This document shows, in pieces, positions 22,222-44,149 of a DNA stretch of 47,804 nt. Both the position numbers and the translations under genes were made by a program. The notes under the pieces are model-generated. The model saw nothing but the letters and a program-made list of their open reading frames with translations. It searched no databases and was not told the origin of the DNA. Source of the stretch: a virus (Duplodnaviria; Heunggongvirae; Uroviricota; Caudoviricetes). The stretch is from IMG/VR virus record IMGVR_UViG_2541047728_000005; one strand, 5' to 3'. Each line of letters opens with the position of its first letter. The stretch's first letter is position 1.

Positions 22222-22232
22222 AACATCACCTG

Positions 22233-22262: not shown

Positions 22263-22419
22263 TGTAAGAGTTACTTTCGATATAAATCAAGGCGCATTTG
22301 CTCCCGCTTAAGCCGAAAAGCCCTCTGCGCCACTAAGATGCGCCACAGGACACCAGCGATAACCACCAGCGAGATACAAAAACACACGGCCACAACCATC
22401 AGAAAAATGCCAACACCAT

Positions 22420-22632: not shown

Positions 22633-22909
22633 CTTCCGCTGCTGATTTACATGCCGCAGTTACTGATATATTGATAACCGGTGCGCTAATCGTGATGGAC
22701 GACGCTGTCGGTTGACGCGATATAACTGAACGATGGCTATCAATGAAGTCCACAATCTCATTCAGGCACTCTTTAGCTGCCTCATCGTGACTTTTTCCGT
22801 ATGCTTCATGGAGGACTTTCATCCTCATCATTGCTCCGTCACATATAGTCGAAAGCGCGTAAAGCACATCACTAACCGCCATTTCTTTTTTGGTGCTTGT
22901 CGAAGGCAT
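22610..22909 (-). CDS. Hypothetical protein
   Basis: 99-aa ORF in operon downstream of cassette copy 1. Confidence 0.4.
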   Translation of the reverse strand: MPSTSTKKEMAVSDVLYALSTICDGAMMRMKVLHEAYGKSHDEAAKECLNEIVDFIDSHRSVISRQPTASSITISAPVINISVTAACKSAAEDDRAYAE

Positions 22910-23180
22910 CCCATGTTCTCCTTTGTCTGGATGTAAAAAAGCCCCGGCAATTGCCGAGGCTCGTTGTTCGTTATCGTTACGGTTTAATGCTCGCGTCGTC
23001 CGGCGACAACTTCGGATTTGTATTTCAGGTCGCCCAGCAAGAATTGCAGTTTAAGCATCTTTGCCGCCGTGTAGTTTCCTGATTCCACAACCTCTTTCAT
23101 GAGGTCATAAACGGCCGCAACATCATCAGCCAGGAACTATTTGCGTTGCTGCTCAGTCGCACGTTTGAAGGAAATACGCA

Positions 23181-23450
23181 TCACTCATCATCTCCTGCCG
23201 CACATACAACCTCACAAAAAACATCAGCGGAATGTTTCTTTTTGAATGAATGGCGCTCAAAACCGCACTCAATATCAGGCGCAAAAACATCCACCACATA
23301 CGGTCTTTCAGAATGTTTGTTTTCCCAACGATAAACCGTAGTGACGTTGAAATGTTTTAACGCTTCACGGAACTCAACGCTGCCCGTCAGGTTTTTTGAG
23401 GTCAGGTATTGCAGGAGGTTTTTTACTACTTCACGGTCTTGTACTTTCAT
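23181..23450 (-). CDS. Hypothetical protein, first gene behind conserved promoter-leader cassette copy 1
   Basis: 89-aa ORF; ATG preceded by conserved CCGGAGATAACCCG leader/RBS. Confidence 0.5.
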   Translation of the reverse strand: MKVQDREVVKNLLQYLTSKNLTGSVEFREALKHFNVTTVYRWENKHSERPYVVDVFAPDIECGFERHSFKKKHSADVFCEVVCAAGDDE

Positions 23451-23457
23451 CGGGTTA

Positions 23458-23562
23458 TCTCCGGTTTAACCAGGGCGGGTATCGCTCGGTTTCGGGTATA
23501 ACCATAGGAAATTTTTTCCCACCTGTAAAGCACTTTTTATATAAATATATAATTATATAATT
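23458..23562 (-). promoter_or_regulatory. Conserved promoter-leader cassette, copy 1, with upstream palindromic TATA-rich array
   Basis: ~105 bp near-identical to 30406..30520 and 39875..39985; contains TTTACA-N17-TATGGT on minus strand and TATATAATTATATAA palindrome. Confidence 0.6.
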
Positions 23563-24144
23563 CTATGCCACTTGCCAGAGAGCATCATGCAACTGGATAC
23601 CTCCATTGCACTGGTTGCCCCAGCCATGCCAACCATCAGGTAAATCACCGCGAGCAAACAGCTCAATACGAGGAACATCACCTAACAGCCTTACCAGCTT
23701 GTCACGAACCACATCAGGCTTCCGAGAATGCTCCAGACGAGGCGATGTAAACGACTGAATGATCCCCGCATCAAGGCGGGTCGGCAATTTGCCTTTTACC
23801 GCAAACAAGCAATCTTCACTGTTTGCACGAGTCATATGCCCCATCCCCAGCTTATCTGGTTGTCGGCTACCACATTTGTTCCATGTGAAGCCCTTCATGG
23901 TCATAAGCCTGAATCCCCATGCTTTCACCACCAGCAACGCTTCTTCTGGCTGAGTCGGAACCCACCACATGGCCAACAAACACGATTCAGGATTAGCAAG
24001 CTGCCAGACAGGAATACGAGCAATATCCTCAGCTTTCATCGTTGAATACTTAAAACCAGCTCCACGATTCCCATCCTTACACTTATCTTTGTATTCCCAG
24101 GGGGGATCTGCATAAATCAGATTAAACAATGCAATTGCCTCCAT
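23563..24144 (-). CDS. DNA N6-adenine methyltransferase, MT-A70 family
   Basis: 193 aa with N-terminal catalytic motif IYADPPWEY. Confidence 0.8.
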   Translation of the reverse strand: MEAIALFNLIYADPPWEYKDKCKDGNRGAGFKYSTMKAEDIARIPVWQLANPESCLLAMWWVPTQPEEALLVVKAWGFRLMTMKGFTWNKCGSRQPDKLGMGHMTRANSEDCLFAVKGKLPTRLDAGIIQSFTSPRLEHSRKPDVVRDKLVRLLGDVPRIELFARGDLPDGWHGWGNQCNGGIQLHDALWQVA

Positions 24145-24452
24145 GTTAGTTGTGCCTCCGGCGCTTATCTCCGGCAGTCATAACGCTGGCCAGCTCTACA
24201 GCAGACGCAACGAAAAGGGCACTAACCAGACTGATTAATGCCCTTGCCTGTTGTGTGCCGGATATCGCCCGACAACGCTGTTTTGGTAACACGGCTACAG
24301 TTCCGTGCCGCTCCAGCTTTTACCCCTTTGCGGATAACAGGCCCTGCCTGTAACTTAGCCCCACGTTCGCCCGAAATGCGCACCAGGCACGCATAAAGAT
24401 GAGCACGAAGGAAGTAACTCCACCGCGCTTATCTTTATGTGTGAGAGTGAAT

Positions 24453-24528
24453 TGGTGGCCCCTACCGGATTTGAACCGATGACCGTGCGATTATGAGTCG
24501 CCTGCTCTAACCACTGAGCTAAGGGGCC
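24453..24528 (-). tRNA. tRNA with CAT anticodon, tRNA-Ile2 (lysidine)-like; could alternatively be Met
   Basis: Minus-strand GGCCCCTTAGCTCAGTGGTTAGAGCAGGCGACTCATAATCGC...GGTTCAAATCCGGTAGGGGCCACCA; cloverleaf with 7-bp acceptor stem, encoded CCA; 5' 42 nt match my recollection of E. coli ileX. Confidence 0.85.
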
Positions 24529-24539
24529 ATATTTGATCT

Positions 24540-24621
24540 GTTTGTCTGGTGTGGCGCCGCGCACGAAAATCCCAGCCAATAAATTCAGGATTTTTGGGCG
24601 CGGCGGCATATCAGACAAACA
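24540..24621. repeat. Nested inverted repeats flanking upstream side of tRNA gene
   Basis: gtttgtctg...cagacaaac (9 bp) enclosing gcgccgcgc...gcgcggcg and aaaatcc...ggatttt. Confidence 0.5.
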
Positions 24622-24667
24622 TGGTTGATGCGTGCGCCCATGAGAAAAGCGCATAGAATGTTGTAAC

Positions 24668-24700
24668 TATATATTTATATAATTATAGAAATATATATTA
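24668..24700. promoter_or_regulatory. TATA-rich palindromic repeat array (same family as parA-upstream repeats)
   Basis: tatatatttatataattatagaaatatatatta between spanin genes and tRNA. Confidence 0.45.
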
Positions 24701-24907
24701 CTTGGGGCAGTTGATTTCCCATGCCCTGTTATGAGCCAGAATATCTTTCTTTGTCTGGCGGTCCATAACATCGATATCGTGATCAGTCAGGTAGATGGGC
24801 TTTACCCAATCACAGGCGGTATCAACCACCACCGGGACGCTTCCACGACTCCCGCAGCTCGCGATCAACATCGTCATCAGCCATATGGTTAACACTCTGC
24901 TGTACAT
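24698..24907 (-). CDS. o-spanin (Rz1-like outer membrane lipoprotein)
   Basis: 69-aa ORF with signal peptide and lipobox LIASC; overlaps 3' end of i-spanin gene. Confidence 0.6.
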   Translation of the reverse strand: MYSRVLTIWLMTMLIASCGSRGSVPVVVDTACDWVKPIYLTDHDIDVMDRQTKKDILAHNRAWEINCPK

Positions 24908-25100
24908 TGCCCACCTCTTTTGTCACTTCTATACGCCGCTCCGCAGTGGCTTTTACGGCGGCTGCATTCTCATTTATGCGCTGCTTTTCAGCTTCATCTT
25001 CGGCCTTTTCTCGCCCCTTCATACGACCAAAACCAAACGCGCCGAATGCAACCAATATAATTGTGCCAATAAATGACAAAACGGCCTTCAAACCAGTCAT
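24822..25100 (-). CDS. i-spanin (Rz-like)
   Basis: 92-aa ORF, N-terminal TM helix then charged coiled-coil; directly downstream of endolysin. Confidence 0.6.
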   Translation of the reverse strand: MTGLKAVLSFIGTIILVAFGAFGFGRMKGREKAEDEAEKQRINENAAAVKATAERRIEVTKEVGNVQQSVNHMADDDVDRELRESWKRPGGG

Positions 25101-25639
25101 ACCACCACTCGCTCTTTCATCCAGCCGTAGACAAACGACTCATTCGCCTCGCGCTTCTCCGCCAGCTCCAGATAGCGTTCGCCCTGCGTACAGTTCAGCG
25201 ACGTCAGCATCACCCGTTCGCCGTCTTTTCCCCGATTCCCAAGATAAGCACGCAGCGCATTAATGGTACGTGGACCGATTCGTCCATCTGCATCCAAATC
25301 GGGATACAGCTTCCCACGCAGATTGAACACATTCAGCCAGCGTTGAAGCATTTTGGACGCCACTGTTGGCCCCATATTCACACCGGTATCACACAGCTCT
25401 GCGGCAATATCAGAGGATAATGCGGCCACCTGATCAAAGCGTGGTCCGTACCAGTAATCAGCCTCAAGGATTTCTAGTGCCTGTTCGCGGGTTAAATCGC
25501 GCATATCGCCACGGTATCCATGAGCACGGGCAGTGTTCTGAGTAATGCCCCACTTTGTTGGGCCTCCCTTGTCGTCAGGGTGATCCACATAGCCGCCCTC
25601 TTTTCCAAGAATGCTGTTAAAAATCTCATCTTTGGTCAT
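25097..25639 (-). CDS. Endolysin, GH108 N-acetylmuramidase with peptidoglycan-binding domain
   Basis: 180 aa; motif GGYVDHPDDKGGPTKWGIT characteristic of GH108 family. Confidence 0.8.
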   Translation of the reverse strand: MTKDEIFNSILGKEGGYVDHPDDKGGPTKWGITQNTARAHGYRGDMRDLTREQALEILEADYWYGPRFDQVAALSSDIAAELCDTGVNMGPTVASKMLQRWLNVFNLRGKLYPDLDADGRIGPRTINALRAYLGNRGKDGERVMLTSLNCTQGERYLELAEKREANESFVYGWMKERVVV

Positions 25640-25958
25640 GATTAAATCCTAATGCGTCAACTATCCGCGCCAGATTGCCCCTGAAATACAGAACAACGAT
25701 GCAGATAATCAGATTTCCAATAACCACCAGCCAGTGGGATTCTTGATAAAGACCGAACACATAACGGAAGGGAACATTGGCGTATACAATGACGTAGATA
25801 TAAGCCAGAAAGGAAACAAATGGACGATGCCTGGAGTCTTTCCGTTGATAAAGCATCAGCGCCATTACTATTACTGTGCAAAGCACCGCATTAATCAGTG
25901 CTGACGGGTCACTGCTTACCATTTGAACCCCCTCCACGTAAGCGGGAAAGCATTCCAA
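25626..25958 (-). CDS. Membrane protein in lysis cassette (holin/antiholin-like)
   Basis: 110-aa ORF with three hydrophobic segments between holin and endolysin. Confidence 0.45.
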   Translation of the reverse strand: MECFPAYVEGVQMVSSDPSALINAVLCTVIVMALMLYQRKDSRHRPFVSFLAYIYVIVYANVPFRYVFGLYQESHWLVVIGNLIICIVVLYFRGNLARIVDALGFNHDQR

Positions 25959-26304
25959 AGATGCTACCGAGATCCTGGCTGTTTACGAACGTGAGGATTT
26001 TAATTGTCAATGCAGCCACAATAACCGCACCAAGCGCATCAAGAGGTCGATCGTTGTAGCTGGTCCATTTGGCAAGAAATGAGCCAACTAACGGCGCTCC
26101 AATCACTCCAACAATGAACGATGTAAAGAAATAGCCAATCAGCTTGAGACGGCTAATATTCACCGCTGTAGCAACATAGAAAACAGCGCCAGCAAATGCC
26201 CCGAATACAACGCCGTAATCAATACCAGTTGCAATACCAAAAACGCTGGCACCCATCAGGCCACCAGCAGCAACGGCCGTACCGGAAATTGGTTCTGCTG
26301 ACAT
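25909..26304 (-). CDS. Holin-like multi-pass membrane protein
   Basis: 131-aa Gly/Ala-rich hydrophobic ORF, first gene of lysis cassette, GAGG RBS. Confidence 0.55.
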   Translation of the reverse strand: MSAEPISGTAVAAGGLMGASVFGIATGIDYGVVFGAFAGAVFYVATAVNISRLKLIGYFFTSFIVGVIGAPLVGSFLAKWTSYNDRPLDALGAVIVAALTIKILTFVNSQDLGSIFGMLSRLRGGGSNGKQ

Positions 26305-26317
26305 TGAAATCCTCGTT

Positions 26318-26351
26318 AAAAAAAAAGCCCCGCCGAAAAAGGCAGGGCTTC
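26318..26351 (-). terminator. Strong rho-independent terminator immediately upstream of holin RBS (tR'-like)
   Basis: Minus strand: GCCCTGCC-tttttc-GGCGGGGC followed by nine T. Confidence 0.7.
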
Positions 26352-26690
26352 ATAAAGCAACAAATTACGCGGTAATCGCTTAACGCAGTTTTACTACGTT
26401 AAATGAAACACTACACCCAGTTACCATCTAAAACAAGGTTTTTCCATAAAAAAACCTTCATATCGTGGTTAATCGATCAATAAAAAAACAATGTTCAACT
26501 TTTTACCAACCGAACATCCCGACCAGGACTTCCATAATATTCGCCGATATGCCACTGCTTAAGTTGAGTAATCTTCTCCAACTTAGCTCCCATAGAGTCC
26601 AGTTTCTGCCATGTTTTCGGTTGTATGTGCTTCATTACCCGCTCTGAATATCTGAATACTGCTCGTAATCGCATGGATTCTCACTACAGC

Positions 26691-27098
26691 TTATATATGT
26701 TCACGACTGGACTTCCAGAATATCCACGCCAGATCAACATTCGGGTCCTGGTAATTCATCCCTTCGTTGGCACGAATCAATAATGTTTCATGGTTTTTAT
26801 CACCCGCATGAAACCTGACAAGTGCTTCGAACTTTTCGCGCCCATCATCCGGCACTACCACCGTTGGCGGCGCGGAGAATAGAGGTTTAGGTGATATTTC
26901 CGCACGTTTTGCGTATGCTTCAACTGTGTCAGGGTTAAACAGGATTATGTTTTCACCGCATTCCCACGCTACCGGCTCTGCTTCCAGTGATGCCAGAGCA
27001 ATTTCATAAGCACGGCGCTCAATATTGTCTCGGACGTCCAGGCTGCCTATGCGCTCTTTGATTTCTTTAATCAGTTCTTTGTCGGTTAAAGTGGTCAT
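26691..27098 (-). CDS. Hypothetical protein
   Basis: 135-aa ORF in minus-strand operon. Confidence 0.4.
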   Translation of the reverse strand: MTTLTDKELIKEIKERIGSLDVRDNIERRAYEIALASLEAEPVAWECGENIILFNPDTVEAYAKRAEISPKPLFSAPPTVVVPDDGREKFEALVRFHAGDKNHETLLIRANEGMNYQDPNVDLAWIFWKSSREHI

Positions 27099-27304
27099 TT
27101 GTTAATCCTCAAAACTTTATGCCCGGGCGCAAAAGCACGCGTTTTGTCGGCGCTTATTCGCCACCCATCTTTACGTGCCTCTTTTGCACAGCCAGCCCAT
27201 GACGTACCGATATATTCACCGAAGTCTGGTACTGGATATACACCTTCCGTACACTGGCGGCAGTCACAATAGAGATGCATGGTGTAACTTGCGGCAACAG
27301 CCAT
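27095..27304 (-). CDS. Small Cys-rich hypothetical protein (start at internal Met with AAGGAGA RBS)
   Basis: 69 aa from MAVAASYTMHLYCDCRQC...; strong RBS upstream of ATG at 27304. Confidence 0.4.
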   Translation of the reverse strand: MAVAASYTMHLYCDCRQCTEGVYPVPDFGEYIGTSWAGCAKEARKDGWRISADKTRAFAPGHKVLRINK

Positions 27305-27483
27305 ATCACTCTCCTTTAGTACGCAAGTGGTTTTTCCAGCGGTTTTGCGCCGCGCTGCGCTTATCTTTGACTCCCTCTCTGGCAATTCCAGAAAATGAAA
27401 ACAACACCACACGGCGATTGCTAACTCTCAACCACTGGCTGGGGTAGCAAAGTCTGTATACACGGGAAATAAGCATCTTTGCT

Positions 27484-27771
27484 TTACGGTTTTTCATCGT
27501 TTGCCCCCTGCTTTTCTGCCCTTAACACCATGCGAGAACCATCATCCAGCTCCCAATTGATTTCACCGCCTTCTGCCATGACAAGATGCCAAACGAGTTG
27601 TGCGGCCTCGTTGGTTACATCACGACCGCGATCATTGCCTACACGGCGTTTTGTTCCGTCACCTAAATCGCGCATTTTGGCCAACACGATGGTTTTTGAT
27701 AGCGGTGAAAAACCAAGCTGTAGCCGTGCGGAATTACTCACTGGTTGCCCCCTGAATACGTTTAAACTCAA
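27484..27771 (-). CDS. Hypothetical protein
   Basis: 95-aa ORF. Confidence 0.3.
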   Translation of the reverse strand: MSLNVFRGQPVSNSARLQLGFSPLSKTIVLAKMRDLGDGTKRRVGNDRGRDVTNEAAQLVWHLVMAEGGEINWELDDGSRMVLRAEKQGANDEKP

Positions 27772-28426
27772 TTACCCATACCCACGGGTTAGATAGCCAG
27801 TTCTCTTGCCCGTAAATACCGCGCCAGATATCACCAAAGCCAACGCGATAAACAGCTTCCGGCGGTGTAATCTTGTACGTCGCCGGAGATGCGCCTTCCG
27901 CTTTAGCATCTGCCTCGCTCATGTCATGCAGCCGTTCCACACGCACGTCGGTAATTTCCAGCAAAATACGTGAAGCCCAGCGCGGCATGTGAATTGATGG
28001 ACGCCACCCGCCATCAAACTTTTCATTCACAGTGTGAGGTTTCCAGTCGGCATCATCGGGTATCGACCATAAACCGTAATCACCAGACTTTTGCTCACAA
28101 CTGGCCCGATAAATCCTTGCTGCGTTCTTCTCATCGCCACGACAAAGGTTGTCGTTCCAGTCCACACTGCAACCATCCTCATTGCCTAATATCGCCCACG
28201 CTTCACGGACCCATATGCGATCACCAACGTTACCGAACGGGCATAAACCATGTTCCGGTGCATCCATAACGTGGGTATAGACACCATTGCGTTTCTTTGT
28301 CGGTTTACGGATAACCAGGCAGTTATCGGCCCTGACATTTTTTACAGGTCGGCGAGTCTGCGTCTTCCTTCCTTCGAGGATGGCCCTAACCATATCGTCA
28401 TTAAAAACAACACCACGTTCTTTCAT
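27734..28426 (-). CDS. Hypothetical protein, possible ASCH-like domain
   Basis: 230-aa ORF; N-terminal FNDDMVRAILEGRKTQTRRP pattern. Confidence 0.4.
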   Translation of the reverse strand: MKERGVVFNDDMVRAILEGRKTQTRRPVKNVRADNCLVIRKPTKKRNGVYTHVMDAPEHGLCPFGNVGDRIWVREAWAILGNEDGCSVDWNDNLCRGDEKNAARIYRASCEQKSGDYGLWSIPDDADWKPHTVNEKFDGGWRPSIHMPRWASRILLEITDVRVERLHDMSEADAKAEGASPATYKITPPEAVYRVGFGDIWRGIYGQENWLSNPWVWVIEFKRIQGATSE

Positions 28427-28677
28427 TTAGAAGCCACCTTGTTCAATTTCCGGCGACAAGACACGCAATCATCAGGACTCTCAAAAGTGTCTGGCTCACG
28501 GTAATCACCAAAATACATCCAACGGCCGCAAATGCTGGTTACTTCACCTTCATTAAAATAATGATGTTTATTCGCCTTCATTGGCCTGACCCATCCGGCA
28601 TTTTTCTTGCTCACTTCAACTCCTCCCGACGACGTTCCTGAAGCTCTAGCATTGCGGCTCGGAAATCCTGCCACCAT
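28423..28677 (-). CDS. Small Zn-ribbon-like protein
   Basis: CxxC...CxxC pattern (ICGRW...CVSCRRK); true start may be internal Met at 28581. Confidence 0.35.
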   Translation of the reverse strand: MVAGFPSRNARASGTSSGGVEVSKKNAGWVRPMKANKHHYFNEGEVTSICGRWMYFGDYREPDTFESPDDCVSCRRKLNKVASK

Positions 28678-28976
28678 TCCTCATCTGCAACGGGGGTGTT
28701 CCGCTCCAGCACCTTGTCCGCATCGGCGATCAGGTTTGCCAGACTCTTGTCTGAAATCTTCGTTACCGGAGTCGTTGGTTGCTCAACCTGCCCGATAGGT
28801 TTTATCGTGCTCAAAAGGAGGCGACGGCGGGAAAGTGGTGCCCCACAACGACGGCCATCTTCCTTGCGATATGTTTCTTTCGGACCAACACACCAGGTTG
28901 TCGGCGTCTCGCGCAACTTCACTTTTTTCTCACCATCATTGGTAATGATTATTCCGGTATGTGTTTTGATGCTCAT
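28611..28976 (-). CDS. Hypothetical protein
   Basis: 121-aa ORF. Confidence 0.35.
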   Translation of the reverse strand: MSIKTHTGIIITNDGEKKVKLRETPTTWCVGPKETYRKEDGRRCGAPLSRRRLLLSTIKPIGQVEQPTTPVTKISDKSLANLIADADKVLERNTPVADEEWWQDFRAAMLELQERRREELK

Positions 28977-29275
28977 GCCACAGCCCCTCTCAACGGCTTA
29001 ACTTTGGCTAATAAGGTGTTAAACAACATGGAGTTAGGATTCATGCCAAATGGCAATTCCGGTTTAGCGGAGTAGTACAGGCAACCATTTATTTTCCTGG
29101 TTGTTATCTGTCCTTCGGCAACCATGCTTCTCAGTCTGCAACGCATAGAGTTCTGCGACACACCAATGTGCTCCGCGATTACGTCCACTTTTGAACATGG
29201 GTGATCGGTCAGGAAATTAATCACATCTTGGGGGTTAATAATTTTGCGTTTCATTGTCGAGGCGTCCTTATACAT
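28973..29275 (-). CDS. Putative winged-helix DNA-binding protein
   Basis: 100 aa; segment DVIAEHIGVSQNSMRCRLRSMVAEGQI resembles wHTH; preceded by TATA-rich array. Confidence 0.4.
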   Translation of the reverse strand: MYKDASTMKRKIINPQDVINFLTDHPCSKVDVIAEHIGVSQNSMRCRLRSMVAEGQITTRKINGCLYYSAKPELPFGMNPNSMLFNTLLAKVKPLRGAVA

Positions 29276-29301
29276 TTATATAAATATATAATTCTATATA
29301 C
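29271..29301. promoter_or_regulatory. TATA-rich palindromic repeat array
   Basis: tacatttatataaatatataattctatatac. Confidence 0.45.
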
Positions 29302-29320
29302 GGCGGGAGACATCCCGCCG
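29301..29320 (-). terminator. GC hairpin, possible terminator or protein-binding palindrome
   Basis: cggcggga-gaca-tcccgccg, 12 nt after stop of 29332..30399; weak U-tract. Confidence 0.35.
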
Positions 29321-29331
29321 TAGGCTTACTG

Positions 29332-30399
29332 TCAGGCTTTCAATAGCGATTCTTTCAGATATCGGGCATCAGCCAGGGCGTTTGGAGTAATCTTGCGAAC
29401 CCATGCATTACGGGTTGGACTCCACTTAAAGGCGCGTGATTTAAGCAGCGAACGAATGTTTGCCTCTGGTTTGCCAGGGAAATAAAACAGGATGCGGTTA
29501 TCCTCTGGATCTATCTCCATAGAAAAGCCGTCGTATTCTTCGCGCTGTGCTCCTGTTACAGACTTGACCGATTCAAGCTCCTTAATACGGCTCTGTAGTC
29601 GTTTGATTTCGGCGTTATTGTTGCTCAGTGCGTATGAAGGGAATCCGATGCGCCCACAGAAATCTCCGGCCAGTAACTCTTTGGCTTCGCTTTCTGTAAA
29701 CCTGAGATCGATTAATGCAGAAAGCTGCTGTATTTGGTCTTTTTTGTATTTGCGAATGGCCTTATTTGCGGCCTTCATTTTGACGTGTGACTTCATGCAG
29801 CCTTGCAGCTTACGAAGCAACTTAAATAGCGCATCAGGATCATCAGACGAAATTCCATTACGACCAACACCTGCGGCTTTGCTCTCGTAGTGTGATGCTT
29901 TACTTTCGCATTCAACAAACGCTTTTCTGAATAACGCATCAGCTTTAGACAAACGGCGGCGATGGCCTTTCGCGCTATAATGGTCAACTAAAATCGGCTG
30001 GCCTAACGGGATCACATCCAACAGGTCATGCGCTCGCTTATGCGCTACCGCACCTTCTTTTCTGGCTTTTTCTGCACGAGCAATATATCGGGCAAGACGC
30101 GCGTTCTGGCGTTCCTGATAGGTGTTTACGTAATCATCTCCGCGCTGCTGCTGTTCAAGCCATGCTTTGCGCAGATCTTCTGTTACATCCACCAGCTCCG
30201 CAGGGATACAACCAGTTTGGGCTTCATAAGAGTAACCATCCTCATAGATACGCCCATCGTCTTCAACAAAGAAAAAGGTTTCGTGCTCATCGCTTTTGAC
30301 CATACGACCATTAACATGGCGTAATAGGTAGCCAGTATCAGTGCTTAACAGGCTGTTAGGGTTGTTGATCCAGTCAGAAATAATTACTTGTTTATTCAT
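29332..30399 (-). CDS. Hypothetical 355-aa protein (possibly DUF3560-like), first gene behind cassette copy 2
   Basis: Track ORF starts inside conserved leader; start moved to ATG at 30399 preceded by CCGGAGAAATCTG. Confidence 0.5.
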   Translation of the reverse strand: MNKQVIISDWINNPNSLLSTDTGYLLRHVNGRMVKSDEHETFFFVEDDGRIYEDGYSYEAQTGCIPAELVDVTEDLRKAWLEQQQRGDDYVNTYQERQNARLARYIARAEKARKEGAVAHKRAHDLLDVIPLGQPILVDHYSAKGHRRRLSKADALFRKAFVECESKASHYESKAAGVGRNGISSDDPDALFKLLRKLQGCMKSHVKMKAANKAIRKYKKDQIQQLSALIDLRFTESEAKELLAGDFCGRIGFPSYALSNNNAEIKRLQSRIKELESVKSVTGAQREEYDGFSMEIDPEDNRILFYFPGKPEANIRSLLKSRAFKWSPTRNAWVRKITPNALADARYLKESLLKA

Positions 30400-30405
30400 C
30401 AGATT

Positions 30406-30520
30406 TCTCCGGTTTAACCAGGGCGGGTATCGCTCGGTTTCGGGTATAACCATAGGAAATTTTTTCCCACCTGTAAAGCACTTTTTATATAAATCTATAA
30501 TTATATATTTATAGATTTTC
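30406..30520 (-). promoter_or_regulatory. Conserved promoter-leader cassette, copy 2, immediately downstream of Q-like gene, with palindromic ATCTATAA...TTATAGAT array
   Basis: Near-identical to copies at 23458..23562 and 39875..39985. Confidence 0.6.
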
Positions 30521-30568
30521 GATGTTCCCGATGTCTACACACCATCAAAACAGCTCAAAATGACACTT

Positions 30569-30946
30569 TTACTCTCTTCGCTTTTTCAAATAGTCGACAA
30601 CATACGCCCTGGCTTTTGCCAGCTTCCGGCGATACTGTCTGAGGCTAAGAGAAAGGGCGTGGGCTTTATCAATATGCGGTGCATTTATGTCGAGGCCCCG
30701 AATCTCCCACGCCCCGTATTCAATTCGGACAACCAGCGCCGCAGTCTCATCAACTACCGTGAGGGCCGTCACCGCTCCCTCTATACTGGTTTCCAGTGAG
30801 TCATTTGGTGCGCCGCCCCCTCCGGTAAACTGGCAGCGCGTAACCATCATCATTTCTAACATCGACGCGAAACCGCTACGGGCGTTGCAGCCATTGCGCA
30901 CCCACAGCGCCCATAGCTCAAACAAGCTATCCAGATCGCGTCTCAC
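30569..30946 (-). CDS. Putative antitermination protein Q-like
   Basis: 125 aa; N-terminal MRRDLDSLFELWALWVRNG...SGF pattern reminiscent of 21/82-type Q; position after nin-like genes. Confidence 0.45.
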   Translation of the reverse strand: MRRDLDSLFELWALWVRNGCNARSGFASMLEMMMVTRCQFTGGGGAPNDSLETSIEGAVTALTVVDETAALVVRIEYGAWEIRGLDINAPHIDKAHALSLSLRQYRRKLAKARAYVVDYLKKRRE

Positions 30947-30949
30947 TGT

Positions 30950-31282
30950 TCAGATCTCCCGTATCGTGACGGGATAAAGCGCCTCTACCTGCTTTTTCTT
31001 CATGATGTAGACGTCTGTTCGCACACCTTTAGTGTCGACACAATCAATCGTCCCATCGTCATAAAACACCATGAAATCAAGTTTATAAACGACACCACCT
31101 GGCAGATGAAAAGGCACCTGCATAAGAAACGTCACAACGCGGCCAGCTTTTCTCAGTAGCTTCAGTTCGCAGTAGTAATCAGCCTCTTTTTTGCTATCAA
31201 AAGCGATATCATCGACAACCGTTTTTTTATTGCCGTATTTGCTTTTCCTTGTCGCTGGTTTGCGAAAGCCGGTATATCTCAT
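30950..31282 (-). CDS. DUF1064-like phage protein
   Basis: 110 aa with GNKKT...FDSKKEADYY...VDTKG pattern. Confidence 0.5.
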   Translation of the reverse strand: MRYTGFRKPATRKSKYGNKKTVVDDIAFDSKKEADYYCELKLLRKAGRVVTFLMQVPFHLPGGVVYKLDFMVFYDDGTIDCVDTKGVRTDVYIMKKKQVEALYPVTIREI

Positions 31283-31683
31283 TTGGTATCCCCTGGTACT
31301 TCACCAAGACTAAGATCAAACCCAATTTCGTCTTTAACTGACTGCGGCAACAGCTCCCACGTCTGCGCACACAAAAATTCATCTGTGCCATAACGCTCAA
31401 CAAAGCGAGCACAATTACTCAGGGGAGGGTGACGAACGGCAATATGCGGAGGCACACGCCCACCACCAGGCACAACACCGCGATGATGTGGTGCGCACAA
31501 CCCAAAGCTATGGAAGTGGCAATTCTCATCAACGCTGCCGTAATCAGGATCGTGATGTAGCTCCGTCCACAGCTCTGGATTCTCAATTTCACGGCCATCA
31601 ATAATGCAAGCTATGCAACCCACGTGAGTGAGCACCGCTTGTATATAAAGTTTCTCTTTCTTCGTTGGTGTACGTCCGTTCAT
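31279..31683 (-). CDS. Zinc-binding nin-region protein (HNH/Ref-like or YbcO-like)
   Basis: 134 aa with HVGCIACIIDG...HH...HFHSFGLCAPHH Cys/His clusters. Confidence 0.4.
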   Translation of the reverse strand: MNGRTPTKKEKLYIQAVLTHVGCIACIIDGREIENPELWTELHHDPDYGSVDENCHFHSFGLCAPHHRGVVPGGGRVPPHIAVRHPPLSNCARFVERYGTDEFLCAQTWELLPQSVKDEIGFDLSLGEVPGDTK

Positions 31684-31916
31684 CAGCGCCCCTTACCATT
31701 GATAAAGAGGTTGAACTCGTTGATTAACTGGACATACATGCTTCTGGCCGCGTAGTTCTTTGCCAGCTCTTTACGGGATGAGATCCCGCAAAACTCACGC
31801 AGAATCACAGAGGCCTCAGAACTGTTTGAAACGTTCTTCCCTGTTTTACTGACCAGAAAGCGCCAGAATTGGGGATTCTGGCAATGCATCGCAGCACCGC
31901 GAACATAACTACTCAT
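31683..31916 (-). CDS. Hypothetical protein
   Basis: 77-aa ORF in early-right-like operon. Confidence 0.35.
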   Translation of the reverse strand: MSSYVRGAAMHCQNPQFWRFLVSKTGKNVSNSSEASVILREFCGISSRKELAKNYAARSMYVQLINEFNLFINGKGR

Positions 31917-32428
31917 TGATGGCCCCCGTCATTTCTGGTGCTTTTCACCGTGCGGCTTCTTAAAAACCTGCCATCACGAACAACAGACACTTCTCGTTTA
32001 CCCAACCTCATTTCACGGCGGTAACATTCAGAAAATGCCTCGTCCGGCATCATATAAATGCGACGCTTCGCCTCCGTATCCAGAAGGGAACGGCTTGGGG
32101 TTACATATAAGAACGACTCATCAATAGGGACAAAACCACGAGCAAGAATTGCTGGCAGAATACCAGGAAGAACGCAGAAAACAGCTCCACGATGCAGCAA
32201 CATCTGGTACTCCATGACCTCCGTAATCCCCGTAACGACTGTTACGGTGTCACGTCTGTTACGGCTGGCAACCAGTCGCTGCACACCTCCAATTTTCTGC
32301 TCTACAGATAGACGTTTGCTATCGTTATCAATATGATCGATAACAAATCCTTTAATCGTTTGATCAAGGTAGTGCACCACCTGCGATTGAATCTGGTGAT
32401 TATCACCAAAGAAGGCCAGAATCATCAT
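31913..32428 (-). CDS. Hypothetical protein
   Basis: 171-aa ORF translationally coupled to neighbours. Confidence 0.4.
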   Translation of the reverse strand: MMILAFFGDNHQIQSQVVHYLDQTIKGFVIDHIDNDSKRLSVEQKIGGVQRLVASRNRRDTVTVVTGITEVMEYQMLLHRGAVFCVLPGILPAILARGFVPIDESFLYVTPSRSLLDTEAKRRIYMMPDEAFSECYRREMRLGKREVSVVRDGRFLRSRTVKSTRNDGGHQ

Positions 32429-35534: not shown

Positions 35535-35557
35535 TAAAAAAGGCCCCCGAAGGGGCC
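35535..35557 (-). terminator. Rho-independent terminator oriented for minus-strand transcripts
   Basis: Minus strand GGCCCC-ttc-GGGGGCC followed by TTTTTTT; 7 nt after stop of small ORF 35564..35686. Confidence 0.65.
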
Positions 35558-35563
35558 TAATCG

Positions 35564-35686
35564 CTACTTGCTGCTAATGTTTATCGTCACATTCAGAGCG
35601 TTATCAGTAATCTTCCAACCCTCCCCATGTGGCGTAAACAAAGCCCCAGTAACAACGATAAAAATACACATACAGTATTTTTTCAT
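35564..35686 (-). CDS. Small hydrophobic peptide (40 aa), candidate type I toxin-like or small membrane protein
   Basis: MKKYCMCIFIVVTGALFTPHGEGWKITDNALNVTINISSK; AAGGG RBS 7 nt upstream; strong terminator immediately downstream. Confidence 0.45.
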   Translation of the reverse strand: MKKYCMCIFIVVTGALFTPHGEGWKITDNALNVTINISSK

Positions 35687-35917
35687 TGTATGGCCCTTAC
35701 AGGCCGTTTCACGGCATCCCCACCGACGAAAACAACGCGAGAGCAAGCACGGCTGCTTGTGCTTGCATGTACGGCAACGGAGAATCCTCCCCTAAAGTCG
35801 GTGCCCGGGTGCGAATCGGCGGGAAGGTCCACAGGTATTTTACGATTATTTTAAGATTAGTAATAGGAAAGAAATTAAACGAAAAAACTCGTTTATTTTC
35901 ACAAAATCAGTAACCTA

Positions 35918-36179: not shown

Positions 36180-36279
36180 GCGCCATTGGTGGACACTTTC
36201 CGAGCCGTAGCAAAATCTACGGTCGGGATTGGAACCCCGATAATCATCATGGCGCATACCGCGTTAGCGGTTTTTTTAT
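36180..36279 (+). ncRNA. Structured RNA segment ending at intrinsic terminator in antirepressor operon leader
   Basis: Hairpins CCGTAG-caaaat-CTACGG, CGGG-attggaa-CCCG, terminator ACCGC-gtta-GCGGT plus TTTTTTT at 36259..36279. Confidence 0.35.
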
Positions 36280-36442
36280 GCGTAAAGCACTGCTACACCC
36301 AAATTATGGTGGGGCGTGCGGGGGAGTCGTAAGACTCGCCGGATTCCATGGTGACCGGTAGTTCCAACCCTGTACGTCTCACCACCCAATGATTGGAACC
36401 AGACGGTGGTGAGTATCCTTAACCTTTAAGGGAACTATCACC

Positions 36443-36634
36443 ATGACAAACTTACCCCATGACTATTACGTCAACCTCGTAAAGATCCTTCTCAAGAAAG
36501 CCTCATACGCCGATAAATTCCGCCTAGCTGAAATCATCGAGCGCGAAGCTATGCGCATCGCCAGCAACGATAACGCTGTTTCTGACGCAAAAATCTCCCT
36601 CGTAACCAAAGTAGTTATGGGAGGTGCAAAATGA
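36443..36634 (+). CDS. Small protein preceding antirepressor (icd-like position)
   Basis: 63-aa ORF overlapping start of antirepressor gene (ATGA); AAGGGA RBS. Confidence 0.45.
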   Translation: MTNLPHDYYVNLVKILLKKASYADKFRLAEIIEREAMRIASNDNAVSDAKISLVTKVVMGGAK

Positions 36635-37773
36635 AAACGCTTCCGACCGTTAACACCCTACAGCCTATCTTGCATAACCAGATCCCCGTTATTACAACTG
36701 AACTTCTGGCGCAGTTATACGGAACAAAAATCAAAAACATTTCTGATAACTTTCTGAACAACACGACGCGATTCATAGCCGGAAAGCATTACTTTAAAAT
36801 TGAAAAAAACGAATTACGCGAGTTCAAGAACAGACCTGAAACAATCGGGTTAGTTGGTAAAAATGCCCGCTCCCTCATTCTCTGGACAGAACGCGGGGCT
36901 GCACGTCACGCCAAAATGCTCGAAACCGATCAGGCGTGGGATGTATTCGAACGGCTGGAAGACTGCTATTTCAGCCAGAACGCGCAAACGGCCGCGACCG
37001 TAACCGTCTCGCCAAACAATGCTCGTGAGGTTGTCGATACGCTCAACGCCAAACCGATGTTTTACATTAAAGTGTGCAACAACGAGCCACTCACAACCTC
37101 AGCCGATGTTGCCCAAGCATTCAGCACCACAAACAATTCCATCGTTATGGCCATCGATGCGCTACGCATTCCTCGCACGGCTGCGGCGCGTCACTTCTTT
37201 AAAGAGCAACGACCGCTGGAAGGAAGCGACCGCGAAATAACAATCTATCGCATGACAAAAGACGGATTTACCTTGCTCATGGAGAGCATCGACGGTCCAA
37301 GCGTGAAAGATATCAAGCTGGCCTACATTGAAGCCTTTAACGCTATCAGCAGCGTGTTAAAAACACAGTACGAGCGTGATCTGGCTAAACGACTGTACCA
37401 GGAAAAAACGATTATCCGCGCGGCAACAGAGCATAATCGGCTATTAACGGAACCGAACTACAGGAAGGAACTAATCAAGGCGTTTGACAAGGCAACAGGG
37501 AAAACCAAAGCGGCGCTAAATCTGCCAGCAATGACTCAGGAAAATGTGATATCAGCCTTACTTCTTGATCTGCTCAGAAACGCCAGAGCACTTATCAGCT
37601 TTGACGAAAACCTGAATCCTCAGCTCAAGCTACTACCACCGACAGGCAAAGTAGTCGACCAAGCTGATCACAACAGCATACTCAGCGTACTGGATGCAAA
37701 CCTGCCAGCCAAGACACTACAGGATCTGATAAAAACATGTGCTGATAAGCTGGCACAGAAAAGCAGACCATAA
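36631..37773 (+). CDS. Antirepressor-like protein (ORF6N/KilA-N-type N-terminal domain)
   Basis: 380 aa; N-terminal ITTELLAQLYGTKIKNISDNFLNNTTRFIAGKHYFKIEKNELREFK...LWTERGAARHAKMLETDQAWDVFERLEDCYF matches ORF6N-type antirepressor pattern. Confidence 0.65.
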   Translation: MKTLPTVNTLQPILHNQIPVITTELLAQLYGTKIKNISDNFLNNTTRFIAGKHYFKIEKNELREFKNRPETIGLVGKNARSLILWTERGAARHAKMLETDQAWDVFERLEDCYFSQNAQTAATVTVSPNNAREVVDTLNAKPMFYIKVCNNEPLTTSADVAQAFSTTNNSIVMAIDALRIPRTAAARHFFKEQRPLEGSDREITIYRMTKDGFTLLMESIDGPSVKDIKLAYIEAFNAISSVLKTQYERDLAKRLYQEKTIIRAATEHNRLLTEPNYRKELIKAFDKATGKTKAALNLPAMTQENVISALLLDLLRNARALISFDENLNPQLKLLPPTGKVVDQADHNSILSVLDANLPAKTLQDLIKTCADKLAQKSRP

Positions 37774-37778
37774 CTACA

Positions 37779-37797
37779 AGGGGCTACGGCCCCTTAC
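37779..37797 (+). terminator. Terminator hairpin after antirepressor gene
   Basis: aggggc-tac-ggcccct followed by T-rich tactcttttctctctt. Confidence 0.5.
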
Positions 37798-38507
37798 TCT
37801 TTTCTCTCTTATCAACGCCAGAGACTTTCTGAAAATCCTTCCGAATAGCGTCAGCATCACGCGCCAAGCCCATACTGGAACGCGTCGCCATATGACGAAA
37901 ATGATCAACTGCCGGAAACAAAGAAATAATGGACCCAATAGCTTGCAGCAAACTCGCTTTTCTACGCATCATAATTCCACCATAACCGATAACCACCCTT
38001 CAGACACAACCCCCCCTCCCCCCATACAGGGTGCCCTTTACCGGAGTTCCGGCCCCTTCTCAAAAGCATCAAAAAAAGCTCGAGATCGAGTACCGGAACT
38101 CATGCCACCAGATAGCTCCACATTGTTTCCAATGCTTCGCCGCCGTGTGCGCCCTGTGGCCCACAATCATGCCATTGGTCGTCTGATATACCTTCTTCTG
38201 CTCATAGAGCACAGGCGAGTTGTCGCACTCCTGCCTTTCTCAGACTCGACTTAGTTTAGATCGCTGTTCCTGGCTTGCGTCAGCACACTTTCCCCTTGTA
38301 CGCATACCCGCGCGCCACTTCGCCCAAAAACACCGAACCCAACGAAGTGGCAAAGACAACGACGCGAGCGTGAGTCTGAAATGGGCACCAGTAAAAAAGG
38401 GGTTGCAGGCGCAAAAAGATTTGATTATCTTTAGACGCAAGAAAGCCGCCCCAATCAAGAGGTGTCTTTTTAAATCCAGCCTACCAAGCAAGATTTAAAT
38501 TTCAGAC

Positions 38508-38535
38508 TGAAAACCGCCCGGCAAGGCGGTTTTTG
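38508..38535 (+). terminator. Rho-independent terminator (plus strand) at end of coding-poor structured region
   Basis: AACCGCC-cggcaa-GGCGGTT followed by TTTGTCTTT. Confidence 0.55.
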
Positions 38536-38594
38536 TCTTTCTGGCGCTTACATTACACCACCATAAAACGATCCGTAAAGGATCATTTGATCCC

Positions 38595-38855
38595 TTATTC
38601 CAATTCTGACGACACTTTAACCTTTTCCCATACAAGGGTTTGCAGCCTTAACAGAATCACATCTTTATCAAGGTGTGAAAGATCCTTAACCATATCGTCA
38701 AACGACAGAACGCGAATGGCCATCTCAATGACCCTCGGCGGCTCACCCTTCTCATATCGCTTATATGTAGCCAACGATATCCCAAACTCTTCGGCGGCTC
38801 GCTCCTGCGTCCAGTTCATCCCACGACGCCATAATTTCAATTCGTAACCCGTCAT
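38595..38855 (-). CDS. XRE-family HTH transcriptional regulator
   Basis: 86 aa; WTQERAAEEFGISLATYKRYEKG HTH motif. Confidence 0.65.
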   Translation of the reverse strand: MTGYELKLWRRGMNWTQERAAEEFGISLATYKRYEKGEPPRVIEMAIRVLSFDDMVKDLSHLDKDVILLRLQTLVWEKVKVSSELE

Positions 38856-38956
38856 TACATCCTCTACCTTTCCCTAGATATTCAATAAATTAGACATAGC
38901 CACTCACGACAAAATAAGATGTATTAACAATCCAATCTTTAGGCTTTAGGTAAAAA

Positions 38957-39382
38957 ATGAGTTCATCTGCTTTTGTCACCGTGGTCACTGGTGTAAGTGT
39001 TTTTGTTCTAGGCCAACTCATCGTCAAAGGAGCTATTGAGCCTTACATTTCATTCAGGGAACAGCTAGGGAAAATATCCAATCTGTTATTGTGTAACCAA
39101 GCAAAAATAGTGAATCCTGGCTCGAACTTAAAGCCAGAAATCATTCATGATCTAAAAGATTCCGCAGCACAGTTAATGGCGAAATATTCCACTTTACCTT
39201 TCTATATCAAAAAGTTACATATCGGCTTTCGTCTTGTTCCATCAGCCACCGAGATTCTTGGGGCAGCTCAAAATTTGAACTATATAGCGTCAATACATGA
39301 AGGTAAGACTGGGGAGAATCCATCTAAGCATCTCGAAGAGATTGGCCATATGCTCAAAATACCAACTACCTATTCAAGCTAA
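38957..39382 (+). CDS. Membrane-anchored hypothetical protein (N-terminal TM helix), divergent from HTH regulator
   Basis: 141-aa AT-rich ORF; N-terminal SAFVTVVTGVSVFVLGQLIV hydrophobic helix. Confidence 0.45.
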   Translation: MSSSAFVTVVTGVSVFVLGQLIVKGAIEPYISFREQLGKISNLLLCNQAKIVNPGSNLKPEIIHDLKDSAAQLMAKYSTLPFYIKKLHIGFRLVPSATEILGAAQNLNYIASIHEGKTGENPSKHLEEIGHMLKIPTTYSS

Positions 39383-39451
39383 CCCAATGTAAGTTATCGG
39401 CTTGCCCCACAATAAGTTATCTATCTTCAAACGCCCCCTATATTAACACTC

Positions 39452-39476
39452 GCAAAGTGTCATTTTGACACTTTGC
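39452..39476. terminator. Perfect 11-bp inverted repeat between convergent genes
   Basis: GCAAAGTGTCA-ttt-TGACACTTTGC. Confidence 0.4.
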
Positions 39477-39485
39477 GCATTGTGT

Positions 39486-39866
39486 TTACTTAACGAGGAA
39501 TAAAAATGGTTTATCGTTCGGCGGTGTAATCGGGGCTGGCTCGCTTTTGCTCATGCGATCAGTGTACCAGGCCAACTCCTTGTCAAAGTAAGCCTGATTA
39601 AAATAGGCCATGAATGTGGTTTCAAATCCATAACGACCGCTAATACGGAGCATCTGATTGCCGTTCTCTGTTTCCAGATATACCTGGGCACGTTCCTGAT
39701 TCTCCTTCAGCCAGGTTAAAGCCTCATCGCACGAGGACAAACGATACTCATCATCGTAGCCGTCATCGATGCGGCTTGAAGAAGAACGGCAAATCACGCC
39801 AACAGAACCAGCCAGGATAGTTTGAATTTTAAGGAAAGCGTTTTTGCGGATTTTAATCATGCTCAT
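39486..39866 (-). CDS. Hypothetical protein with N-terminal signal-like hydrophobic segment, first gene behind cassette copy 3
   Basis: 126-aa ORF; ATG preceded by conserved CCGGAGATAACCCG leader. Confidence 0.45.
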   Translation of the reverse strand: MSMIKIRKNAFLKIQTILAGSVGVICRSSSSRIDDGYDDEYRLSSCDEALTWLKENQERAQVYLETENGNQMLRISGRYGFETTFMAYFNQAYFDKELAWYTDRMSKSEPAPITPPNDKPFLFLVK

Positions 39867-40029: not shown

Positions 40030-40329
40030 TCAGATGTTAAACGCTATTCGTTTTCCTGTGGGAAGCTCAACATCCAGGCTTAATTTGCCTCCCATAGCTT
40101 CAACGTAACGCTTTAATGTCGCCAGCTTTAAATCATTTCCGCGCTGCTCCAGCTTTGTTACTGCTGGCTGGCTTATACCCATCGCCTCAGCAACCTGTTT
40201 TTGTGATAACTGGAGTTCTTCACGCATCATCTGCAAGCCGACCTCAAGAATCATCTCATCTGCCATTTCTTTAATTCGCGCCTGGCTTTCAGGTGAACGG
40301 CTGGCAATCGCCTCATCTAATGTTCTCAT
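40030..40329 (-). CDS. higA: HigA-like antitoxin (XRE HTH)
   Basis: 99 aa; HTH LSQKQVAEAMGISQPAVTKLEQ; directly downstream of and overlapping toxin gene. Confidence 0.7.
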   Translation of the reverse strand: MRTLDEAIASRSPESQARIKEMADEMILEVGLQMMREELQLSQKQVAEAMGISQPAVTKLEQRGNDLKLATLKRYVEAMGGKLSLDVELPTGKRIAFNI

Positions 40330-40682
40330 TACTTGCTCTCCAGTGTGTTCAGATGTGCTGCAAACTCATCCTCAGCTATACGCACCAGTTTTTCATAAAA
40401 CCGCTTATCGTTACTTTTGTCTCCTGCACAAAGAACGATGGCCCGGCGAATCGGATCGAACGCATAAAAGGCTCTTATCGGACGGCCAGAAAACTGAACG
40501 CGAAGCTCTTTCATATTTTTGTACCGAGAACCTTTTACGGTATCGGCATATGGCCTGGGTAACTCAGGTCCGTAAACCTGTAGCTTTTTCAAATCAGCCA
40601 AAACCTTTTCCTGAAGAGCGTCTTCTTGCTCATTTAGCCAGTCGTCAAATCGCTGGCTAAAAAGTACCGTCCACATGCTCAA
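40329..40682 (-). CDS. higB: HigB-like toxin (RelE/ParE superfamily, Gp49-like addiction module killer)
   Basis: 117 aa; toxin-first order with XRE antitoxin; pattern ...DWLNEQ...KNMKELRVQFSGRPIRAFYAFDPIRRAIVLCAGDK. Confidence 0.7.
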   Translation of the reverse strand: MSMWTVLFSQRFDDWLNEQEDALQEKVLADLKKLQVYGPELPRPYADTVKGSRYKNMKELRVQFSGRPIRAFYAFDPIRRAIVLCAGDKSNDKRFYEKLVRIAEDEFAAHLNTLESK

Positions 40683-43585: not shown

Positions 43586-44149
43586 ATGCTGAATAATAAA
43601 GATATGAATATTAATGAACTTAAAGACTGTATTCACTATGAAGTAATCGGTAGCGAGCGTCCTTTCTCCTGGCGAAAGGCAATTGTTCGCGCAATAAAAC
43701 ATAGAAGGGTTCGTTATTTATTTTGGTGGCGCATAGCCAAATACCTTTTTGATAAAGGCGGATACTGTCGGAAGATTGCGGGAAAAATAGAACGTTTCAT
43801 TCTTGATAAATATAATGTAACAGTCCCTTTAACTGTAAATATAGGGAAAGGCTTTGATATTTCTTATCTCAACAGTGTTGTTATCGGTCACAAAGTAACA
43901 ATCGGTGAAAATTGTTCAATTAAGCCCGGAGTAACTATTGGACTTCGCGGGGAATTTAATGATATGGATATTGTTATAGGGCATAATGTGACCATTGGTT
44001 GTAATGCCACCATTCTTGGTGGCAAAGTGCGTATAGGAAACAATGTCACAATAGGTGCTCATGCATTGGTATTGCATGATATTCCTGATGATTCAACATT
44101 CATCACTAAATTTCAGTCTGAAGTTATCTGCTCGTCCTCCCGAACATAA
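43586..44149 (+). CDS. Hexapeptide-repeat (left-handed beta-helix) acetyltransferase, moron-like
   Basis: 187 aa with tandem [LIV]-G-x-x-x-x-I-G repeats ([21 protein letters not shown]...[32 protein letters not shown]); AT-rich; convergent with and overlapping 3' end of tfa. Confidence 0.8.

Follow-up and report, generated by a model that had tools for sequence, protein, structure and literature searches.

The divergent orientation of two small genes in a virus of Escherichia coli probably results from the chance juxtaposition of two independent units, a backbone gene for a helix-turn-helix (HTH) protein and an inserted moron that plausibly encodes an exclusion or defence factor. Both genes lie in the IMG/VR record IMGVR_UViG_2541047728_000005 (Caudoviricetes), a stretch of 47,804 nucleotides that was analysed as a whole and is called the window in the following. 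By its sequence, it is a myovirus-type E. coli phage-plasmid of the 47-50-kb class. The open reading frame (ORF) listing bears out the arrangement described in an earlier, sequence-only reading of this DNA: the gene of an XRE/Cro-C1-type HTH protein of 86 amino acids (aa) occupies positions 38595..38855 on the minus strand, and that of a 141-aa single-pass membrane protein occupies positions 38957..39382 on the plus strand. That reading had joined the two genes in a regulator-effector module for superinfection exclusion or abortive infection. The evidence presented below separates them.

The inserted cassette and the empty site

The 141-aa gene is contained in a cassette (38865..39439, plus strand) that consists of a promoter, the ORF and a 57-bp tail and that was delimited by empty-site alignment, BLAST junctions and GC content. 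In an alignment with pZ0117EC0148-4 and Yersinia phage vB_YpM_41, the 575 bp of the cassette stand where the empty site has the 8 bp CTCGCACA. BLAST places the junctions at 38864|38865 and 39439|39440 of the window, just upstream of the ribosome-binding site of the HTH gene. All three aligned sequences share a conserved HTH gene together with the start codon and the GAGGA ribosome-binding site. The divergent layout is thus explained by insertion of the 575-bp cassette just upstream of this ribosome-binding site. The sequence-only reading had described the membrane-protein gene as AT-rich, which is mildly true: its GC content is 39.9% and that of the insert 38.8%, compared with 44.5% for the window, and among 577-bp windows the insert falls at the 15th percentile.

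The two genes are distributed independently of each other. The HTH gene occurs in 72 of 5,426 complete E. coli genomes, in all but one on plasmids of about the size of the window, and its homologues, which form 46 clusters, are conserved among phage-plasmids from five genera. Twelve of the 62 related plasmids in PLSDB contain the cassette, as do, at 99% identity or more, 13 of the 72 E. coli genomes with the HTH gene; the remaining 59 lack it. Since the HTH gene is found without the cassette in most of these genomes and in all inspected relatives from other genera, it belongs to the backbone, and the 141-aa gene is accessory. Conversely, none of 33 homologue-bearing loci outside this phage-plasmid sub-lineage contains the HTH gene, and in a tblastn search with both proteins over 49 fetched loci co-occurrence was confined to elements of the window type, which form one phage-plasmid lineage. 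The 141-aa gene has solitary homologues in no fewer than 13 contexts. Parsimony suggests that the 141-aa gene was inserted in one E. coli sub-lineage.

The cassette brings its own promoter. A promoter scan identified the sigma-70-like sequence TAGACA-N18-TAAGAT at 38891..38920 (plus strand; 9 of 12 matches). In nine of ten unrelated genomic contexts both hexamers are found at the same distance from the ATG, in the form TAGACA-N17/18-TA(A/G)GAT, and the sequence further upstream is unrelated. Between contexts, nucleotide homology begins about 70-85 nt before the ATG and ends less than about 40 nt past the stop codon. A conserved convergent downstream partner that travels with the cassette was considered and dropped because homology ends so soon after the gene.

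Downstream, the cassette borders on a perfect 12+12-bp palindrome of the backbone, CGCAAAGTGTCA-ttt-TGACACTTTGCG (39451..39477), which was identified by the terminator scan, by folding and by its conservation. The predicted folds have energies of -20.5 and -21.0 kcal/mol (z -6.3 and -5.8). In empty sites the palindrome lies about 25 bp upstream of the HTH ribosome-binding site, between the HTH gene and the gene of a 126-aa protein. It is conserved in relatives but with its loop flipped, TTTT in the window as opposed to AAAA in cassette-free relatives, as is expected from hairpin-mediated inversion. Because no U-run follows the palindrome on the minus strand, transcription may plausibly continue through it into the HTH gene; in the plus direction a T-rich run comes next, and the moron transcript can end at the palindrome. 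The half-site was also considered as an operator that recurs elsewhere, an idea that was abandoned since it is unique within the window. The minus-strand unit is closed after the HTH gene by an intrinsic-terminator-like hairpin (38508..38535, minus strand; terminator scan and RNA fold; energy -18.2 kcal/mol, z -3.1), after which the minus strand reads UUUU. In silico, the 141-aa gene displays several features of a moron: presence or absence between otherwise syntenic genomes, sharp junctions, an own promoter and a downstream hairpin with a T-run.

In vB_YpM_41 the site is found in a third state. The empty-site sequence is intact and an unrelated miniature element of 318 bp (4460-4777 of the phage) lies 9 bp away. 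It is a Tn3-type miniature inverted-repeat transposable element (MITE) with 38-bp inverted repeats (GGGGTTCCGTGGG...) and a 5-bp target duplication, ATAGC. It precedes the HTH start codon by 3 nt, displacing the ribosome-binding site. Related copies occur in 166 E. coli genomes, mostly on plasmids. Because the phages that bear the MITE are plaque-forming isolates, the HTH protein may be dispensable for lytic growth.

The membrane protein, its family and its genomic slots

The single N-terminal hydrophobic helix that had been noticed in the 141-aa protein is well supported: the Kyte-Doolittle profile over 19 residues peaks at 2.23 (residues 5-23) and shows no other hydrophobic segment. All of the 58 aligned family members have the anchor helix, with values above 1.6. 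Across the family, lysine and arginine together average 0.14 residues ahead of the helix and 2.45 within the 15 positions that follow, a bias that predicts an N-out/C-in topology with a cytoplasmic domain of about 115 residues. In the AlphaFold2 (AF2) model (pLDDT 79, pTM 0.71) a long helix comprising residues 4-46 packs with three further helices (60-78, 97-114, 123-133) into a four-helix bundle. The family alignments reveal conserved motifs, GQ..LK..EP after the anchor, Q.KITN, LP, LN.I, and L.IPTTY at the C-terminus. A dN/dS ratio of 0.14-0.20 relative to six homologues points to strong purifying selection.

A word-indexed search yielded 37 close clusters, all enterobacterial and all annotated as hypothetical. 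The full profile search extended the family to 705 clusters at 50% identity, nearly all with 135-180 aa and the same architecture. The assumption of the sequence-only reading that neither protein matches a known family is correct for the 141-aa protein as far as Pfam, NCBIfam, PADLOC and the PDB are concerned, but both proteins belong to PHROG families without annotated function (phrog_6962 at 1.3e-45 and phrog_7512 at 2.8e-74), and the HTH protein also to a Pfam family. Pfam, NCBIfam and PADLOC gave no match either for the 141-aa protein or for the 58 family members, and no defence model of PADLOC-DB v2 matched the 141-aa protein at an E-value of 1 or better. A profile search of the PDB with the family returned only noise (Mediator Med9 at E 0.014), and Foldseek of the model against viral structures gave nothing below E 0.9. 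A literature search with the protein accessions found nothing.

Homologues of the 141-aa protein are encoded in 333 of the 5,426 complete E. coli genomes (about 6%), and 336 of the 340 copies are plasmid-borne. Loci were scanned with family alignment A3, alignment A4 being too diverse, which gave 5 loci from genome contigs and 9 from viral contigs. The plasmid contexts include IncF and IncX plasmids, an IncX-like backbone, Microcin-C-type plasmids, the ColV-type plasmid of ATCC 11775, p1540-4 (near CcdAB and microcin J25) and Salmonella plasmids, in which the gene adjoins Phd/ParE or directly follows AbiD. On an IncX4 plasmid it is part of a cassette array together with AbiD, PD-T4-4 and a protein resembling an Argonaute-associated restriction endonuclease (REase). 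Its place in P1/D6-like phage-plasmids, phage D6 (orf109) among them, is between humD and phd/doc. In the nin region of two types of lambdoid prophages, it stands between ninB and the replication genes and is encoded on the opposite strand. In Chromohalobacter, a P2-like prophage has it between the sheath gene FI and the tail-fibre genes. This slot is the Z-region, occupied in P2 by the exclusion gene Z/fun and known to receive genes by horizontal transfer (PMC3091744). Further homologues were found in a P2-like region of Pseudoalteromonas, in a cyanobacterial island with a transposase and toxin-antitoxin genes, and on a metagenomic contig, where a single DUF1810 gene stands between the homologue and the upstream gene for a ThsA-like macro-domain protein.

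The plasmid-borne homologues are bracketed by a site of about 36 nt with the consensus CCGCGCCAACCTGGACATTCAGGTAATTCTGTCCAG and the arms CTGGACA/TGTCCAG. Matches to the site occur in at least 1,226 plasmids of PLSDB, which are nearly all enterobacterial and include 939 conjugative ones; none of the 25 records listed has an annotated feature at the site. In the IncX4 plasmid NZ_CP056167.1, eleven sites in the same direction tile the accessory region 20941-31933, the last one ending 265 bp upstream of a gene for a 271-aa tyrosine recombinase; arrays of sites in the same orientation also occur at six further plasmid loci. Each interval holds one or two genes. The cassettes of NZ_CP056167 encode AbiD (8.5e-61), PD-T4-4 A (1e-262) and B (3e-108), the Argonaute-associated (Aga) REase-like protein (1.7e-28), the DqlB toxin, the 141-aa homologue and several uncharacterised proteins. 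Plasmids differ in the order of the same cassettes, and the ends of homology blocks fall inside the sites. The layout is integron-like, and the literature searched contained neither the site sequence nor a similar plasmid cassette system. The site is not known to resemble dif/cer or attC sites. Such arrays may be a general route by which enterobacterial plasmids shuffle defence genes. The idea that the cassette of the window is likewise flanked by this site was given up, since the best position-weight-matrix score in the window is 5.8 bits as compared with 27-50 bits for real sites.

These observations suggest the following scheme. Ancestrally, the HTH gene would have stood last among the genes of a minus-strand unit composed, in this order, of the 126-aa gene, the palindromic hairpin, the HTH gene and the terminator. 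The cassette would have entered between this hairpin and the ribosome-binding site of the HTH gene, facing the other way, as a classical moron with its own sigma-70 promoter, one ORF and an end at the backbone hairpin with its plus-strand T-rich run. In the plasmid-prophage state it would be transcribed independently of the HTH protein. Its product would be a type-III-like single-pass inner-membrane protein with a very short periplasmic N-terminus, an anchor and a cytoplasmic four-helix bundle, and might act at the inner face of the membrane as a lysogenic-conversion factor that excludes or aborts incoming phages or other mobile DNA. We propose this exclusion or abortion function tentatively, on the grounds that homologues occupy recognised moron and defence slots and in view of the neighbours they have there. 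A wider proposal, likewise tentative, sees in the family a novel determinant of abortive infection or of the exclusion of phages or entering DNA, made up of one gene for a membrane-anchored protein, which would move with its own promoter as a cassette among plasmid arrays, phage-plasmids and the moron slots of prophages.

Several points speak against the interpretation as a fortuitously placed exclusion or defence gene. The direction of the event, insertion as opposed to deletion, rests on parsimony across genera. Within the insert, the promoter scan revealed no convincing candidate on the minus strand from which the HTH gene could be transcribed. Regulation between the two genes may have arisen fortuitously, through antisense or convergent transcription or through binding of the HTH protein in the spacer. 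Finally, many neighbours of the homologues are toxin-antitoxin or uncharacterised genes, and the link to defence is guilt by association. Indeed, the frequent vicinity of toxin-antitoxin loci (ParE/Phd, CcdAB, Phd/Doc, HigBA, DqlB) and the lack of similarity to known defence proteins in PADLOC would also suit another kind of accessory membrane protein, such as an addiction or toxin-like protein, an anti-defence protein or a modulator of a host membrane process. We consider such a role unlikely: no conserved partner gene or antisense RNA was found to travel with the 141-aa gene across the compared contexts, and strong purifying selection on a protein with a structured soluble domain of 115 residues is unlike the small type I toxins.

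The HTH gene and the phage-plasmid backbone

The assignment of the regulator to the XRE type stands. The HTH protein scores 29.9 bits with Pfam HTH_3 (PF01381; cut-off 23, E 5.8e-7) and 27.6 bits with HTH_31 (cut-off 27); HTH_3 is matched by 18 of 19 family members. The AF2 model (pLDDT 86) has helices at residues 3-12, 17-24, 28-36, 41-60 and 64-85, the C-terminal one being extended, and its Foldseek matches are HipB, SinR, HigA, Aca2 and P2 C, with probabilities of 0.99-1.0 and E-values of about 0.03 for HipB, SinR and P2 C. Remote-homology search and structure prediction, which the sequence-only reading had proposed, thus gave a five-helix XRE fold for the HTH protein but for the 141-aa protein only a helical bundle, with no relative found in the PDB or among viral structures. 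In PADLOC, the sole match of the HTH protein was mad1 at E 0.025. One homologue with 53% identity is embedded in a quite different operon. The allele of the window is shorter than usual, 86 instead of 90 aa (...ELEQGIK), owing to a TAA/CAA polymorphism: the TAA at 38595-38597 is CAA in relatives, which places the stop 4 codons early.

Most likely, the HTH protein regulates its own backbone unit and not the moron, possibly through the palindrome at 39451-39477. A more specific version, in which it is an Aca-like autoregulator of an anti-defence operon composed of the 126-aa gene and the HTH gene and interrupted by the moron, draws on the best PDB match of the HTH family profile, Aca2 (7ezy; E 2e-4), which extends from Met1 to residue 67 and covers the HTH part only, and on a Foldseek alignment with 30% identity over 81 columns. 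The empty sites also count in its favour, since there the HTH gene follows the co-oriented 126-aa gene after 63 bp, and the perfect palindrome lies between them. However, Pfam Aca2_YdiL (PF08965) is matched below threshold by just 2 of the 19 family members (best E 0.22), the HTH protein lacks the C-terminal domain of Aca2 (86 versus 125 aa), Citrobacter relatives do without the 126-aa gene, and the 126-aa protein has a hydrophobic N-terminus that is unusual for known Acr proteins, and no known homologue. The similarity to Aca2 is a lead only, and we regard the Aca-like operon as improbable, to about the same degree as a non-defence role of the 141-aa protein.

The dedicated module proposed initially, in which the XRE protein would repress the divergent gene of a membrane-bound superinfection-exclusion or abortive-infection effector, fares considerably worse. 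XRE regulators often control divergent neighbours. The genes are indeed separated by an AT-rich spacer of 101 bp (38856-38956, 31.7% GC), and the putative effector is membrane-anchored and accessory. Yet the two genes are distributed independently, the junction of the insert lies between them, the promoter of the 141-aa gene is conserved where the HTH gene is absent, and a comparison of palindromes and repeats found no operator-like repeat common to the spacer and the backbone. We consider the module very improbable, as these comparative data speak strongly against this part of the sequence-only reading. That both ORFs are genuine genes is beyond reasonable doubt, for the HTH gene by its 46 homologous clusters and for the 141-aa gene by the dN/dS ratio, the 705 clusters of the same length and architecture and the confident AF2 model, which refute a spurious frame in AT-rich DNA, a notion favoured by the lower GC content and nothing beyond.

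The window is recognised as a phage-plasmid by near-identical plasmids and close myovirus relatives. Twelve circular, non-mobilizable E. coli plasmids in PLSDB, 47-50 kb in size, share 98.6-100% identity with the region, and 50 further plasmids of the same family match it in part, as two pieces, which brings the related plasmids to 62. They encode RepA, ParA, tail-fibre and invertase genes. The close phage relatives are Yersinia phages vB_YpM_39, vB_YpM_41 and vB_YpM_44 and Escherichia phage vB_EcoM-613R2, all myoviruses; a literature search with the phage names found nothing. Membership in the pSLy3 group was considered and dropped, as that group is related to SSU5. Salmonella, Citrobacter, Klebsiella and Yokenella harbour remoter members of the family. 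At the loci that were inspected, from Salmonella and Citrobacter, the order is RepA, HigB, HigA, an optional 126-aa gene and the HTH gene, all co-directional, and the membrane-protein gene is absent.

In the window the pair is flanked as had been described, by the antirepressor gene ant (ORF6N+pRha, 36631-37773) on one side and by higA (40030-40329) and higB (HigB/Gp49, 40329-40682) on the other, all assigned by Pfam. The 126-aa gene (39486..39866, minus strand) was identified by PHROG (phrog_8090, 3.1e-89, function not annotated) and from the annotations of relatives. Its product has no match in Pfam, NCBIfam, PADLOC or the PDB. The N-terminus is signal- or lipoprotein-like (…ILAGSVGVICRSSSS), and the protein may be an envelope-targeted accessory protein.

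A 63-aa ORF (36443-36634) overlaps with its end the start of ant and is closely preceded by matches to two RNAs, isrK (36204-36277, 70 bits) and the C4 antisense RNA (36302-36389, 84 bits). Together, these elements are an immunity module like immI of P1 (c4-icd-ant) or the isrK module of Gifsy. A ryfA RNA (35536-35832, minus strand; 141.8 bits in Rfam, gathering threshold 80) is located between the ParA-side genes and the immunity RNAs. The region between ant and the HTH terminator (37774-38500) comprises about 700 bp without a convincing ORF and with a strand skew that is strongly C-rich. Within it, relatives annotate just a 62-aa ORF (37784-37972, minus strand); from 38400 onward the sequence is conserved in relatives, which keep a gap of similar size there. 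Rfam gave no match in 37774-38500, and no known RNA family was found within 37700-39500 at an E-value of 1 or better. A hexapeptide-repeat O-acetyltransferase of the EpsC/CysE/WcaB type (43586-44149, plus strand; E 7e-23) adjoins tail-fibre assembly and tail-fibre genes and is a candidate conversion gene for the modification of surface polysaccharides. The phage-plasmid also contains a tRNA-Met (CAT) gene (24453-24528, minus strand).

Comparison with known systems

With the removal of the false module, the XRE gene should carry the label of a backbone regulator, and the 141-aa gene that of a moron acquired independently. Among XRE/Cro-C1 regulators with an HTH_3 domain (HipB, the N-domain of SinR, P2 C, controller C-proteins), the HTH protein finds its place by the HTH_3 score above threshold, the five-helix fold and Foldseek probabilities of at least 0.99; it differs from them by a C-terminal helical extension of about 35 residues of its own. 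With Aca2 (7ezy) it shares an N-terminal region of 67 residues that aligns from the initiator methionine (MTxYEL...YExG), and its gene, like that of Aca2, is downstream of a small ORF with an inverted repeat nearby. Unlike Aca2, it remains below the Pfam threshold and has no C-terminal domain, and no acr gene was identified.

The superinfection-exclusion proteins T4 Imm, P22 SieA, HK97 gp15 and P1 Sim are, like the 141-aa protein, small, membrane-anchored and encoded by prophages or plasmids in accessory slots. This is a functional analogy: homology was not detected by Pfam, PHROG annotation, PADLOC or the PDB, and the bulk of the 141-aa protein is predicted to be cytoplasmic, unlike that of the exclusion proteins.

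Close parallels are the morons, exemplified by bor and lom of lambda, gp15 of HK97, and Z/fun, tin and old of P2. The 141-aa protein shares neither sequence nor fold with characterised moron products. Its gene nevertheless resembles theirs as a single gene with its own predicted promoter and terminator between backbone genes, polymorphic among syntenic genomes, of lower GC content than its surroundings and transcribed, here and in lambdoid prophages, against the neighbouring backbone genes. One of its homologues even resides in the P2 Z-region itself (PMC3091744). The 141-aa moron is thus an uncharacterised member of a familiar category and represents a sizeable family without functional database annotation that turns up repeatedly in slots used by phages and plasmids for exclusion and defence genes. 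Purifying selection, occurrence in about 6% of E. coli genomes and recurrence in these slots make it a candidate for a cheap and well-defined phage-challenge screen. Phage D6 orf109 (YP_009914786, hypothetical), although in a different element and slot and without an XRE neighbour, is a true homologue with 74% identity over the full length (71% over residues 18-141), encoded by a sequenced P1-like phage-plasmid between humD and phd.

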